Shown here in pieces: positions 8,996 to 43,608 of a DNA stretch of 64,000 nucleotides (its first letter is position 1; each line of letters begins with the position of its first letter). The translations under genes and the position numbers were made by a program. The notes beneath the pieces were generated by a model. That model ran no database searches and had not been told where the DNA came from. It saw nothing but the letters and a program-made list of their open reading frames with translations. The stretch is from the IMG/VR virus record IMGVR_UViG_3300027672_001612, positions 1 through 64,000 of that record. The stretch is one strand, 5' to 3'. The DNA comes from a virus. Lineage: Duplodnaviria > Caudoviricetes.

Positions 8996-9571
8996 CTATG
9001 AACGCTGGCGCATTATTTCATCACGCTCTTCAGCAGTAATCTTTGTTAGTCCGGGATTGTCCGGGAATACACAACAAGGTTGCAAGTTATAAAAATCATC
9101 AACATAGTCACACCACTCACGTTTGAATGATTGATCAGTGCCAACTTTATGTACTATCGCAACTCTATTCTCTCTGTCATATACTAACGTAGTATAATCA
9201 CCGAATGATTGAAATTTGCCTAAACGTTGCAATCTGTCTAAATAATCAGTTCCATCATGACTTATGCCAAATGCTGGAAATGTGCCAGACGTCCAATCCC
9301 TATCAATCATCCATTGCTCTTGCAGATCGTCATCGATATCGATAGGTTCGAAAGGTCCAAGTTCTGGGTATTGTTCAGCAAGCCAAAACTTTTCATTGTG
9401 CCAGGGATCGTTATCTGGATCGTGTTCTAATGTTGTTTGATTACAAATAACACCTTCACAGTATGTTTTAATTATAGTAGTACCACCGTTAGCAGTTGTA
9501 TACCAAAGTTGGTCGTTTATAAAACATTTTAGTTCAGATGCTTCTGTATTGTGAGTCCAATTAAGTTCCAT
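8996..9571 (-). CDS. Hypothetical protein (true start likely ATG 9571, leaderless)
   Basis: TAAATA-N5-ATG; the longer track ORF overlaps the divergent gene. Confidence 0.7.
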   Translation of the reverse strand: MELNWTHNTEASELKCFINDQLWYTTANGGTTIIKTYCEGVICNQTTLEHDPDNDPWHNEKFWLAEQYPELGPFEPIDIDDDLQEQWMIDRDWTSGTFPAFGISHDGTDYLDRLQRLGKFQSFGDYTTLVYDRENRVAIVHKVGTDQSFKREWCDYVDDFYNLQPCCVFPDNPGLTKITAEERDEIMRQRS

Positions 9572-9602
9572 ATAAGTATTTAGCTTTGGATAAATATATG
9601 TT

Positions 9603-10988
9603 ATGCTATTCGGGATATTAACATTAATTACAGCCTTGGCGATTGCCGGGGTAGCCGCTTGGTTCTCTATCATAGGGCTCATGAGCATTTTCTCCGCCGC
9701 CGCAATGCCGATAGCAGTAATGGCTGGCGTACTAGAAGTAGGCAAATTACTTACAGCAAGTTGGCTGTACAGGTATTGGGACGAGACCGGCATACTATTA
9801 AAAAGTTATCTAAGTGTTGCTGTAGCAGTACTAATGTTGATAACATCAATGGGTATCTTTGGATATCTTTCAAAAGCACATTTGGATCAAGCAGGCGAAA
9901 GCGGAGATGCATTCGCTATTGTAGAACGACTAGAAAGCAAAGTTGCTAGAGAAGAAAACAAAATTACAATACTTGAAGACCGTATTGCCAGCCTACAAAC
10001 AGGTGGCGGCATGGATACTACTTCAAGCATAGAACAACAAGCAACAATTAGAGACGGTGCTTGGGAAAGAGTACAAGGTGACATTGACTATGCCCAAGGA
10101 CAAATCCAAAGTGTAAGAGATCAACTAGTTATTGACCTCAAAGCACAAGATGATAAACTAATACCGTTAGACAGCATTGTAGACAGTTATGCGGACCAGG
10201 GTACAGTTACAACAGGAACCTTTCTTAATAGAAACACTACAGACAATGTTGCTAAAGCAAACGAAGTAAGACAAGAACAGAAAGCAGAACGTGATGCTAT
10301 AGCAGATGAAAAAGATAATCTGCGTACAAGAGCTCAAACAGATATAAACATACAACAAGCAAACATAGACAAGTATAGAACACAGGCACAGAAAACAATA
10401 GAAAATGCAAATGCAGAAATTAACAAACTGCGAAATAGTAGTAGTGCTGACCAAGACCAAGCATTGGTTAAGGTGGATGAATACAACGAACAAATTGATA
10501 CAATATACGATGGCTTAATAGTAATTAAAGATGAAAAGTTTGAAGCCGAAAGTACAGTAAGAGAATTAGAGAAGGAAGTTGGGCCTATTAAATATGTGGC
10601 TCAATTAGTTTACGGTGACGATAGTGCAGACGTATTAGATAAAGCAGTACGGTTGTTTATATTATTACTGGTGTTTGTGTTCGACCCATTAGCAGTTATA
10701 TTAATTATTGCGGCTAACCAAACATTACTTAGGCATGGTATTAACCTAGAGTCCAAAGGACCTCCAATACCGCCTACACCAACCGAACCTCCTCCACAAA
10801 ACGAATTAGAACAAGTATGGGATAATAAAGATTTGGGGAAAGTTACTGATGATGACGAACGAGCACTTATGGAAGGGCAACTTAATCATCTAAAAGAACA
10901 ACTAGTTGCAGATAGGTTGACACAACAAAATGCATCAGACGATGCCGCTACAGCAATGGCTGAAAGCGCCTCCAAAAAAAAAGACTAG
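9603..10988 (+). CDS. Multi-pass membrane protein with long coiled coil (short isoform)
   Basis: About three N-terminal TM helices, about 250 aa heptad-rich region, a further TM near residue 350; ends right after an A9 run. Confidence 0.85.
   Translation: MLFGILTLITALAIAGVAAWFSIIGLMSIFSAAAMPIAVMAGVLEVGKLLTASWLYRYWDETGILLKSYLSVAVAVLMLITSMGIFGYLSKAHLDQAGESGDAFAIVERLESKVAREENKITILEDRIASLQTGGGMDTTSSIEQQATIRDGAWERVQGDIDYAQGQIQSVRDQLVIDLKAQDDKLIPLDSIVDSYADQGTVTTGTFLNRNTTDNVAKANEVRQEQKAERDAIADEKDNLRTRAQTDINIQQANIDKYRTQAQKTIENANAEINKLRNSSSADQDQALVKVDEYNEQIDTIYDGLIVIKDEKFEAESTVRELEKEVGPIKYVAQLVYGDDSADVLDKAVRLFILLLVFVFDPLAVILIIAANQTLLRHGINLESKGPPIPPTPTEPPPQNELEQVWDNKDLGKVTDDDERALMEGQLNHLKEQLVADRLTQQNASDDAATAMAESASKKKD
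10974..10982 (+). other. A9 slippery site (candidate -1 frameshift or transcriptional slippage)
   Basis: TCC AAA AAA AAA GAC TAG; the -1 frame is open from 10964 to 11650. Confidence 0.6.
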
Positions 10989-11650
10989 AAGAAGCTCTTA
11001 AATCCTTAAATAAAAAATATGAAAAGACATTAAAACTCTTGAGTGATAAGCCGAAAGAAGTTATAATAGAGAAACAAGTTGAAAAGATAGTAGAAAAGAT
11101 AGTAGAAGTAGAAGTACCAGTTGAAGTCCCAGTTGAAGTTATTAAAGAAATAATAGTTACTAAGGAGATTGAAGTTGAAAAATTCATCGAGATTGAAAAA
11201 CCAGTCGAGGTTGAGGTCATCAAGGAGACAGTTCGAATTGTTGAAAAGGAAGTGCAAGGGCCAGAACGTATTGTTGAAGTCCCAGGACCAGAACGAATTG
11301 TTGAAGTCCCAGGACCAGAACGAATTGTCGAACGTGTTGTTGAAGTCCCAGGACGAGAACGAGTCGTAGTTAGGACAGATAACAGCAAGATAGAAGAGTT
11401 AGAACAACGTTTAGCAGTTAAGCCTTCAGTAGTTGAGAAGGCTAATGCTAACAACTTAATTGAAGCCGCAAGGATCATGTCTGAGAGCGAGTTCAATAAA
11501 GAAGGGTATACTGAGGAAGAAATATTAAATATGCTTACAAAGACAAGTGAAGAAGAAGTTAATCGTACTTTAGGGTTCTGGGCTATACCATTACCAAAAG
11601 ACGATAATGATAAACCAGATCCAGACAACTTGAGGTATACCACAAAATAA
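10982..11650 (+). CDS. VE(V/K)P charged-repeat domain; probable frameshifted C-terminal extension of 9603-10988
   Basis: Frame open upstream of the weak TTG at 11039 (RLEEALKSLNKKYEKTLKLLSDKP...); EKIVEVP/VEVPGPERI repeats. Confidence 0.7.
   Translation, partial: RLEEALKSLNKKYEKTLKLLSDKPKEVIIEKQVEKIVEKIVEVEVPVEVPVEVIKEIIVTKEIEVEKFIEIEKPVEVEVIKETVRIVEKEVQGPERIVEVPGPERIVEVPGPERIVERVVEVPGRERVVVRTDNSKIEELEQRLAVKPSVVEKANANNLIEAARIMSESEFNKEGYTEEEILNMLTKTSEEEVNRTLGFWAIPLPKDDNDKPDPDNLRYTTK
11271..11362 (+). repeat. 27-bp tandem coding repeat (VEVPGPERI), two exact copies plus one degenerate copy
   Basis: ttgttgaagtcccaggaccagaacgaa at 11271 and 11298; variant at 11337. Confidence 0.9.
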
Positions 11651-12921
11651 TGTCCGATAATAAAGATAGTAACCTAGAATGTAGTTTCTGTGGCAAGAAA
11701 CGACATGATGTGCGTAAACTAATCGCTGGACCTAACTCGTATATTTGTAATGAATGTGTGAGTATAAGTCATAAAATTATTAACGAGGACTACGATACTT
11801 CTCCAGACATGGAACTGGAAGATATCCCTACCCCACAAGAAATTAAAGACTACTTAGATGAATATGTAATCAGCCAAGAATATGCAAAAGAGATTCTAAG
11901 TGTATGTGCATACAACCATTATAAGAAAACTTACTACAGCGATGATAAAGACAGTATCGAAAAGAGTAATGTACTATTAATAGGTAGCACTGGTACAGGT
12001 AAAACACTTATAGTACAAACACTTGCTAGGAAACTTGGTGTGCCATTTGCTATAGCAGATGCAACTACACTTACTGAAGCAGGGTACGTTGGTGAAGATG
12101 TAGAGAGTGTAATCGAACGACTACTTAATACATGTGACTGGAACGTAGAAAAAGCACAGAAGGGTATAGTATTCATAGACGAGATTGATAAAAAGGCTCG
12201 TAGCAGTGAGTCTAACACCGGCACAAAGGATATTAGTGGAGAAGGTGTACAACAAGCACTCTTAAGACTAATAGAAGGAACTACTGTAAAGATTTCCACT
12301 AACGGCTCAAAGCGTATGGATGACTTTATTGAATTTGATACTAAAGACGTATTGTTTATAGTAGGCGGAGCATTTGTAGGGTTAGACAAGATTGTTAACA
12401 AAAAATTAAAGAAAGGATCGATAGGATTCAATCAGAAAGTTCACAGTAAGAAAACAGATGTAAATTGGCTAGACCATGTTGAACATGATGACATTATCAG
12501 CTATGGATTAATTCCAGAGTTTGCTGGTAGGTTACCTAATATTGTAGGATTAGAAGATTTAGACCAAGATGATATGTTTAGCATATTAACTAATGCTAAA
12601 TCTAGTTGTATTACACAGGTAACAAAATTATTAGAATTAGATGAAATAGAATTACAGTTTGAGGAGCAATATCTTAAAGACGTTGCCGAGATTGCTGTAA
12701 AGAAAAAAGTTGGAGCAAGAGGATTAAAAAGCATTGTAGAAAACAGTTTACACAATATAATGTTTAGGGCGCCAATATTAAGACAGGAACAAGTGCAACA
12801 AGTGATATTTAATAAGTATCCTAAAACGGTTGACTTGCATCCTGTATTTGTGTATACTAACGGCAATAGTGAAATTGATAGACACTATAAAATTAAACTT
12901 AGAGGTAAAAGTGAGTTATAA
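11650..12921 (+). CDS. clpX: Clp protease ATPase ClpX
   Basis: C4 zinc finger (CSFCGK..ICNEC), GSTGTGKT, TEAGYVGEDVE, FIDEIDK, GEGVQQALL, IGF loop, GARGL. Confidence 0.96.
   Translation: MSDNKDSNLECSFCGKKRHDVRKLIAGPNSYICNECVSISHKIINEDYDTSPDMELEDIPTPQEIKDYLDEYVISQEYAKEILSVCAYNHYKKTYYSDDKDSIEKSNVLLIGSTGTGKTLIVQTLARKLGVPFAIADATTLTEAGYVGEDVESVIERLLNTCDWNVEKAQKGIVFIDEIDKKARSSESNTGTKDISGEGVQQALLRLIEGTTVKISTNGSKRMDDFIEFDTKDVLFIVGGAFVGLDKIVNKKLKKGSIGFNQKVHSKKTDVNWLDHVEHDDIISYGLIPEFAGRLPNIVGLEDLDQDDMFSILTNAKSSCITQVTKLLELDEIELQFEEQYLKDVAEIAVKKKVGARGLKSIVENSLHNIMFRAPILRQEQVQQVIFNKYPKTVDLHPVFVYTNGNSEIDRHYKIKLRGKSEL
12830..12858 (+). promoter_or_regulatory. sigma70-type promoter inside the clpX 3' end, driving bS21
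   Basis: AAAACGG-TTGACT-N17-TATACT. Confidence 0.65.
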
Positions 12922-13342
12922 TCGAGATAACAATAATAACAAATCGTTCACTAGAGATTTTAATTCTAGAAAACGTGATGACAAGCCAAGAGTAGAGCCA
13001 CACTATCTTGACGCCTATAAACCAGGTGTTGAAGTTAGAAATGGTGATGTTGGTAAAGCATTGAGGATATTGAAGAAGCGTTTAGAAAAAGCAGAGTTCC
13101 AAAAGACTATGTCTAAACTACAATATTTTGAGAAACCGAGTCAGAAAAGAAAGCGTATGAAAGACCAAGCGAAGAAGCGTTGGAGCAAACAAGTACGTGA
13201 TATGGAAGCCTCCGGAGCTCAACGACAGTACGAACCTACTGGAACTAAATGGATGAAAGATAAAAGAAAAACTAGGAAACATGCACTTGTGAAGGCGAAA
13301 CTACAAATTCAACTTCGTAAGAAAGGTCCTTTTCATTCGTGA
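12911..13342 (+). CDS. rpsU: Ribosomal protein bS21 homologue with N- and C-terminal extensions
   Basis: VEVRNGDVGKALRILKK...QYFEKPSQKRKR core; GAGGT SD before GTG 12911. Confidence 0.85.
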   Translation: MSYNRDNNNNKSFTRDFNSRKRDDKPRVEPHYLDAYKPGVEVRNGDVGKALRILKKRLEKAEFQKTMSKLQYFEKPSQKRKRMKDQAKKRWSKQVRDMEASGAQRQYEPTGTKWMKDKRKTRKHALVKAKLQIQLRKKGPFHS

Positions 13343-32691: not shown

Positions 32692-32724
32692 AAAAAGCCA
32701 GTTCAAAGTGACTGGCTTTTTTTT
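32692..32724 (+). terminator. Terminator
   Basis: AAGCCAGT..ACTGGCTTTTTTTT. Confidence 0.85.
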
Positions 32725-42293: not shown

Positions 42294-42327
42294 AAAAAGC
42301 CAGTTTTTAATAGACTGGCTTTTTTTT
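42294..42327 (+). terminator. Terminator
   Basis: AAGCCAGT..ACTGGCTTTTTTTT. Confidence 0.85.
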
Positions 42328-43578: not shown

Positions 43579-43608
43579 AAGCCACTTTTAATCGAGTGGC
43601 TTTTTTTT
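43579..43608 (+). terminator. Terminator (followed by TATAAATA at 43612)
   Basis: AAGCCACT..AGTGGCTTTTTTTT. Confidence 0.85.

Follow-up and report, generated by a model that had tools for sequence, protein, structure and literature searches.

When a phage reading frame ends just after a run of A while the neighboring frame stays open, are two genes present or one gene that is read in two frames? The question is raised by positions 9603 to 11650 of a tailed-phage genome (Duplodnaviria; Caudoviricetes), IMG/VR virus record IMGVR_UViG_3300027672_001612. Here, open reading frame (ORF) 1, which encodes a predicted membrane protein of 461 amino acids (aa), stops one codon past a run of nine A (the A9 run), and a second frame, ORF2, continues in -1. 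All coordinates refer to the window, the 64,000-nucleotide (nt) stretch of this record that was analyzed; the full contig is 109,775 bp long. We present here comparative evidence that the two ORFs are probably one gene, in which programmed recoding at the A9 run would produce forms of 461 and 682 aa.

Reading frames and selection across the A9 run

ORF1 ends in a Ser codon, nine A, GAC, and TAG, and the -1 frame is open from 10964 to its own stop. Because that frame is closed upstream by a TGA, any shift of frame must fall within 10964-10985. The reading frames and signals are as follows.

9603-10988, plus strand: ORF1, whose 461-aa zero-frame (short) product is a predicted membrane anchor bearing a coiled-coil hairpin; its homologues number more than 8000, and all of them are viral or metagenomic proteins without a name
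10961-10963, plus strand: TGA closing the -1 frame upstream, read from the sequence
10974-10982, plus strand: A9 run, the putative slippage site, from the sequence read and homologous loci
10986-10988, plus strand: zero-frame TAG, one codon past the A9 run, kept throughout the out-of-frame clade
10982-11650, plus strand: coding part of the -1 frame, 222 aa that would be added after a slip; stop at 11648-11650; ratio of nonsynonymous to synonymous substitution rates (dN/dS), 0.11-0.12
11039-11041, plus strand: TTG at which gene callers begin a separate ORF2; when the frames are read as fused, it is an internal Leu codon; conserved in the clade; no Shine-Dalgarno sequence
11650-12921, plus strand: phage clpX; one base is shared between its ATG and the -1-frame stop

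The codons of the -1 frame were read one by one from 10964. The earliest ATG, GTG, or TTG is the TTG at 11039; no near-cognate start precedes it in this frame, and no purine-rich Shine-Dalgarno sequence lies ahead of it in the sequence. The end of ORF1, the upstream TGA, the open -1 frame from 10964 to 11650, and the TTG without a Shine-Dalgarno sequence are thus as the original prediction, made from this DNA alone, had described them. Having no start of its own, the stretch between the run and the TTG could be translated only by ribosomes arriving from ORF1 after a change of frame. A slip at the A9 run would join 460 residues of ORF1 to 222 of the -1 frame, giving 682 aa, and the unslipped product has 461.

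The A9 run is the sole homopolymer of at least nine in the 109,775-bp contig, in which runs of eight are nearly all intergenic. The decay of run lengths alone predicts about one run of nine or more per 64 kb, so the mere presence of such a run is not beyond chance, and the weight of the argument rests on its position and conservation.

The window and its close relatives with the same arrangement form a clade, hereafter the out-of-frame clade. In comparisons within it, ORF2 read in the -1 frame has dN/dS values of 0.11 (synonymous divergence [dS], 0.27) and 0.12 (dS, 0.62), third-position changes dominate, and no stops or frame-breaking indels occur. By this measure, the downstream frame is under purifying selection. 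The -1 join is also colinear with relatives that encode the whole protein in a single ORF of 630-650 aa (L007, L008, and L036-L042), to which it aligns without a gap over the junction. The 22 codons from the A9 run to the TTG are free of indels in 13 clade sequences, and comparison of the codons between run and TTG with the in-frame relative L007 gives the same residue at 14 of 20 positions, with 8 of those 14 codons differing only synonymously. In AlphaFold2 models, a helix of ORF1 residues 418-460 abuts a helix of residues 2-27 of the -1 product at the A-run, so that one helix would cross the junction.

An open frame of 231 aa runs antisense across the repeat region of the gene (10948-11643, minus strand). 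It is most likely a shadow of repetitive Glu and Val codons and not a gene.

The frame break and the A9 run among relatives

The frame break recurs in DNA from other samples. A contig of 1541 nt, assembled at a depth of 41 from an independent 2019 marine metagenome run, spans 10500-11290 and is gap-free across the A9 run, and three IMG/VR contigs (L002, L003, and L010) carry the identical nine A and the identical stop. IMG/VR and the JGI metagenome collection were scanned with a pattern that permitted 7-11 A. Every related contig has nine A (L099-L101, L106, L107, L114, L115, and L117-L119), and neither eight nor ten A occurred in a related out-of-frame contig in these scans or in the loci examined. 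Matches with eight A (L094, L104, L120, and L121), and the match L093, were rejected as unrelated DNA. Variants with a short ORF1, retrieved by protein look-ups, end in Lys-Lys-Lys and then Asp, Val, or Gly before the stop; two such variants turn up in 49 and 59 of the collection's blocks, and the loci of short-ORF1 variants (L082-L089 and L133-L136) have exactly nine A each.

Members of the clade are 84-95% identical in ORF2, whereas no in-frame protein among 5.8 billion exceeds 58%. This gap in identity argues that the break is fixed in the clade, where it is kept across at least seven sequence variants and one mosaic recombinant. As far as the contigs show, the frame break is real and fixed and is no assembly error. 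The original prediction had left room for a miscounted run of ten; at the contig level the count was always nine and never ten, and the conserved A-run and frame break that it anticipated at homologous loci were found throughout the out-of-frame clade.

The mosaic sequence, L010, is 63-64% identical to the window in ORF1 (dS, about 1.1) and 87% identical in the junction and ORF2 (dS, 0.62), and some relatives with split genes are nearer to the window in ORF1 (74%) than L010 is. This pattern suggests recombination inside the gene.

All in-frame relatives examined have exactly nine A at the same place, comprising 10 distinct fused sequences and two split forms (L009 and L035). Four of the ten fused sequences (L129-L132) were fetched afterwards as a test of this rule. 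In these relatives the run takes up the last two bases of a Gln or Glu codon, both of the all-A Lys codons that follow, and the first base of an Arg codon. Synonymous sites beside the run vary freely among them, and where the Arg after the run has changed to Ser, the leading A is retained. In the window genome, 62% of Lys codons are AAA, yet Lys-Lys pairs are written as six A in only 14 of 100 cases, and the only Lys-Lys-Lys written entirely in A is the A9 site. Since nine A are kept next to freely varying synonymous sites, six-A Lys-Lys is rare, and the leading A is retained, the length of the run seems itself to be under selection. Compared with the in-frame L036, the window clade lacks one base immediately before the run; either the first base of the Gln or Glu codon was lost or a ten-A intermediate contracted.

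The commonest layout is a third one, which has no A-run. ORF1 then bears a short repeat tail of its own. The tail protein comes from a second gene, in the +1 frame, with an ATG that overlaps the stop of ORF1. Independent genes with their own ATG and no A-run, which tell against the original prediction, do therefore exist, but they belong to this other architecture, with its additional ORF1 tail and its downstream gene in +1; the nearest single-ORF relatives, by contrast, carry the same A9 run in frame. Two split-gene relatives bear nine A in frame inside ORF1 at Gln-Lys-Lys-Arg (L009:4286-4294 and L035:4505-4513), so that an A9 run is present in all three gene layouts. Distant members of the family, of 390-400 aa (L054-L080), are without the tail. 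In a further set of relatives (L020-L024 and L032-L035), the first ORF past ORF1 has only 74-85 aa and no Gly-Phe-Trp motif, and a clpX zinc-finger motif follows 400-700 nt further on; their tail may have been further split or replaced.

Probable slippage at the A9 run and competing explanations

Two routes would lead to the same 682-aa protein, since the product is identical whether the polymerase slips and inserts an additional A or the ribosome shifts by -1 on the all-A heptamer (X XXY YYZ), which fits the zero frame. The RNA around the run has one candidate stimulator.

10946-10968, plus strand: GC-rich hairpin of 3 + 4 base pairs with a 4-nt loop, ending 5 nt before the A-run; present in the minimum-energy fold

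Pairing of this hairpin is complete (100%) in 9 distinct out-of-frame sequences, compared with about 73% in in-frame forms. One of its pairs occurs as UA, AU, GC, and GU, and the observed score was reached by 0 of 500 shuffles; covariation is suggestive only. The elements that usually accompany -1 ribosomal frameshifting were looked for as well. A direct reading of 10950-10973 gave no Shine-Dalgarno-like element about 10 nt upstream, folding of the window and related sequences gave no stimulatory stem-loop or pseudoknot 5-9 nt downstream, and 9300-11900 has no Rfam match. The sole recurrent downstream hairpin was rejected as a stimulator: it begins within the final two A of the run and is wrongly spaced; in the window it is weak (z-score, 0.17), and its pairs do not covary. 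Runs of nine A or T slip efficiently in vivo, as in Thermus dnaX and Shigella spa13 (PMC5009743), and in many bacteria, selection against slippage becomes apparent at a length of nine (PMC1088944). Because the family keeps nine A and not merely the seven that a ribosomal shift needs, and because the GC-rich hairpin lies 5 nt upstream, polymerase slippage appears, given recoding, the likelier of the two routes.

Ordinary decoding would yield the 461-aa form, an inner-membrane protein with three transmembrane helices, a coiled-coil hairpin, a fourth transmembrane helix, and a short cytoplasmic helix. The 682-aa form would come from a slip of one base at the A-run, through an extra A added by RNA polymerase or a -1 shift by the ribosome, and in it that last helix would run on into a disordered acidic repeat linker and then a small conserved helical end domain. 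The conserved A9 run and the colinear join make the two isoforms of the original prediction the likely output on comparative grounds.

Several points limit the case for recoding or for the route proposed for it. Within the clade, the 20 codons that directly follow the run show weaker constraint than the whole of ORF2, with a dN/dS of roughly 0.5 by hand count. The mosaicism of L010 means that clade members are not fully independent witnesses for the junction. The covariation concerns a single base pair in related sequences, and the upstream hairpin could equally modulate ribosomal frameshifting or could be no more than a by-product of the conserved Ala-x-Ala-Met-Ala-Glu-Ser-Ala codons. In three metatranscriptome runs, RNA contigs match portions of ORF1 and ORF2 and stop short of the run on both sides, leaving 10916-11005 uncovered; contigs drop minority run-length variants, and the DNA contig is uniform at nine A. 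Finally, the TTG at 11039 is the same in every clade member, and a separate protein of 203 aa could be translated from it. In that event ORF2, begun at this TTG or by re-initiation past the TAG, would be a soluble protein in its own right and the A9 run incidental. Gene callers use this start, the host group probably has little need of Shine-Dalgarno sequences, and many relatives encode the tail as its own gene with an overlapping ATG, which argues that a free tail is functional in the family. Two separate proteins would, however, leave several things unaccounted for: the 22 codons ahead of the TTG are open, indel-free, and matched at the protein level to in-frame relatives through synonymous differences; nine A recur in every architecture that bears an A-run; the predicted helix is unbroken over the junction; and the TTG is without a Shine-Dalgarno sequence. 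We regard this explanation as unlikely.

The remaining explanations deny the frame break its function, its constancy, or its existence. If a frameshift mutation had merely been tolerated, the tail would be dispensable and the downstream frame decaying or unused, as the tail-less distant forms might suggest; but the low dN/dS of ORF2 holds at dS values up to 0.62 with no frame-breaking stops or indels, the break persists in the seven or more variants and the mosaic recombinant, and the overlap with the clpX start is retained, which makes such decay quite improbable. Replication, too, tends to slip on homopolymers of this length, and phase variation at the DNA level would mix nine-A and ten-A phages, with the long form made from ten-A genomes only. 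A minority of ten-A genomes would be invisible in contigs, yet frequent switching should leave some assemblies in the other state, and eight or ten A is never the majority state in related contigs from many samples; the in-frame lineages likewise always have nine. We consider phase variation very unlikely. An error of assembly or base calling, with a true run of ten A and one 682-aa ORF, is the least credible of all and can be held to be a negligible prospect: miscounted homopolymers commonly mimic frameshifts, but the same nine A appear across studies, assemblers, and years, including the depth-41 contig, a ten-A version is absent from three collections, and no matching in-frame protein was found among the 5.8 billion. 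Recoding of one gene at the A9 run thus stays the probable explanation.

A promoter-like site begins exactly at the TTG (11039-11067). It is the best sigma-70-like match of the region (10/12) and lies over conserved Lys-Pro-Lys-Glu-Val-Ile-Ile codons. Such sites are no commoner than in shuffled sequences, and with its overlap of conserved codons the site was rejected as an explanation; the match may be coincidental.

Predicted protein, neighboring genes, and known systems

The architecture of the product was taken from AlphaFold2 predictions (ORF1 model m320319608d8a; mean predicted local distance difference test score [pLDDT], 80) and alignments. Its parts are as follows.

9606-9872, plus strand: three N-terminal transmembrane helices, residues 2-29, 34-57, and 64 to about 90 (AlphaFold2)
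9873-10613, plus strand: predicted antiparallel coiled-coil hairpin, residues about 91-337, capped by a small beta tip; each arm has about 110 residues, and the length is roughly 16 nm; pLDDT mostly 85-97
10626-10733, plus strand: fourth transmembrane helix, residues 342-377 (AlphaFold2); invariant Phe-Asp-Pro-Leu-Ala motif in alignment A1
10752-10850, plus strand: Pro-rich disordered linker, residues 384-416; pLDDT below 50; length varies among relatives
10854-10982, plus strand: helix leading into the recoding site and continued in the -1 frame, residues 418-460 (AlphaFold2)
11075-11365, plus strand: acidic Val/Glu/Pro/Lys repeats, about 100 residues, with three Gly-Pro-Glu-Arg-Ile-Val-Glu-Val-Pro units; predicted disordered, pLDDT below 50
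11384-11596, plus strand: C-terminal helical domain ending in an invariant Gly-Phe-Trp-Ala-x-x-Leu-Pro motif; pLDDT 80-90

The fourth transmembrane helix is preceded by acidic and followed by basic residues, and the tail protein of split relatives has no signal or membrane segment; on these grounds the tail is probably cytoplasmic and the coiled-coil hairpin periplasmic. This topology, together with the split relatives in which the anchor is tail-less, suggests an envelope-spanning anchor with a cytoplasmic tail. Searches of Pfam, PHROGs, NCBIfam, a PDB sequence profile, Foldseek against PDB and BFVD, and the ESM Atlas placed the gene product in no named family. They returned only unnamed viral relatives or generic long coiled coils, and the relatives found by fold included unnamed phage proteins. 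A Pfam match to Tetraspanin was rejected at 16.7 bits against a gathering cut-off of 32.1. The nearest isolate, Pelagibacter phage Mosig, has a shorter homologue annotated as hypothetical. Membership of the alveolins or articulins, to which the original prediction likened the repeats, is unsupported. The ORF2 products of the window and of L010 and the fused protein of L007 have no Pfam (IMCp) match at E values up to 10; the repeats are predicted to be disordered, the length and number of their units vary freely between relatives, and short strings similar to the alveolin type do occur. The phage-built membrane scaffold that had been proposed along with this likeness is unsupported.

Directly after the tail-coding frame comes clpX, in the out-of-frame, in-frame, and split layouts alike. 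The one-base overlap of its start with the tail-frame stop (11648-11652) is retained in the clade, and an S21-like gene (12830-13342) in turn overlaps the end of clpX. The order SNase, PTPS, a minus-strand gene, the A9 gene, clpX, S21, and a cytidylyltransferase-cupin gene is the same in relatives. From this gene order, one might guess that the tail tethers ClpX. The minus-strand ORF as mechanically called (8996-9793, 265 aa) shares 190 nt with the beginning of ORF1; in relatives the gene called at this place has 195 aa, which would remove the overlap and leave about 19 nt between divergent start codons, and the protein has no family match. Elsewhere in the window, three runs of eight T (32717-32724, 42320-42327, and 43601-43608) share the same flanks, GGC before and GAC after, with a TAAATA-like box close behind. 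They look like a repeated unit of terminator and late promoter.

A wider account of the family can be put forward, although we hold it to be rather doubtful. The A9 run would be an old device that sets a ratio of products in every layout. The default product of in-frame lineages would be the long form, and slippage would give them a truncated anchor; the window clade would have flipped the default and tightened the upstream hairpin to raise slippage; and split lineages would have exchanged the device for two coupled genes. Together, the short and long forms would make up an assembly that spans the envelope, with the cytoplasmic tail working with co-translated ClpX.

A literature search found no paper on this phage gene. 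If the recoding is true, it would be a clear case of programmed slippage beyond the usual phage examples, which are tail chaperones and capsid extensions. The gene belongs to abundant T4-like phages of the sea, and the isolate closest to this group infects Pelagibacter. Of added interest is that one gene occurs in three layouts, the first two of which, in-frame and out-of-frame, share the conserved run. The in-frame A9, the out-of-frame A9, and the two coupled genes offer a natural three-way comparison of how a recoding site originates and is replaced. For annotation, dozens of public contigs have the gene split by gene callers into a 461-aa protein and a TTG protein without a proper start. 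The protein is itself unstudied; it is predicted to be anchored in the membrane by four passes, with a cytoplasmic tail and a hairpin about 16 nm long, and phage clpX is always its neighbor.

Several known systems resemble parts of this locus. The alveolins and articulins, repeat proteins of protist membrane skeletons, have strings of Glu, Lys, Ile, Val, and Pro that look alike by eye, a likeness of composition only; the phage repeats differ in having no profile match, in their predicted disorder, in their source, and in their membrane-anchor context. The phage tail assembly chaperone G/GT is likewise a conserved case of recoding in tailed phages, with a short and a C-terminally extended protein from one locus. 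It is unrelated in gene, protein, and role, however, and uses classical ribosomal heptamers with no nine-base homopolymer.

For the upstream hairpin, the counterpart is an IS630-family element of Roseiflexus (Penno et al. 2015), in which hairpin-stimulated transcriptional slippage has been described; a 5′ hairpin is a known stimulator (PMC5009743). Both have a GC-rich nascent-RNA hairpin just 5′ of the slippery motif. In Roseiflexus, the hairpin abuts T5C5 and a specific one-base deletion results, whereas in the phage gene a 5-nt spacer follows a weaker, interrupted hairpin of 7 bp and an insertion is needed. The A9 run can slip without help from a hairpin.

The tau and gamma products of dnaX also share an N terminus, with a nine-base run (slippage in Thermus thermophilus) and stops in the other frames close by; Escherichia coli dnaX uses -1 ribosomal frameshifting (PMC5009743). 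As with dnaX, related lineages of the phage gene would reach two products via different gene layouts. The dnaX long form is always the zero-frame product, whereas the default would be short in the window clade and long in its in-frame relatives, and the phage A9 site has neither a downstream structure at frameshift spacing nor an upstream Shine-Dalgarno-like element.

The closest precedent for the phage A9 gene is tssM1 of Citrobacter rodentium. In C. rodentium and Yersinia pseudotuberculosis, transcriptional frameshifting in tssM1 gives two length variants of an inner-membrane protein, both of which are needed (Gueguen et al. 2014; PMC4256274). The two differ in that tssM1 is a bacterial secretion-system gene with 11 A and proven heterogeneity of its mRNA, whereas the phage gene has nine A and is known from sequence alone. 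In both, a membrane-protein gene stops just past a poly-A run, and slippage restores the frame in tssM1 and would do so in the phage, giving a short anchor and a full-length protein with a C-terminal domain.

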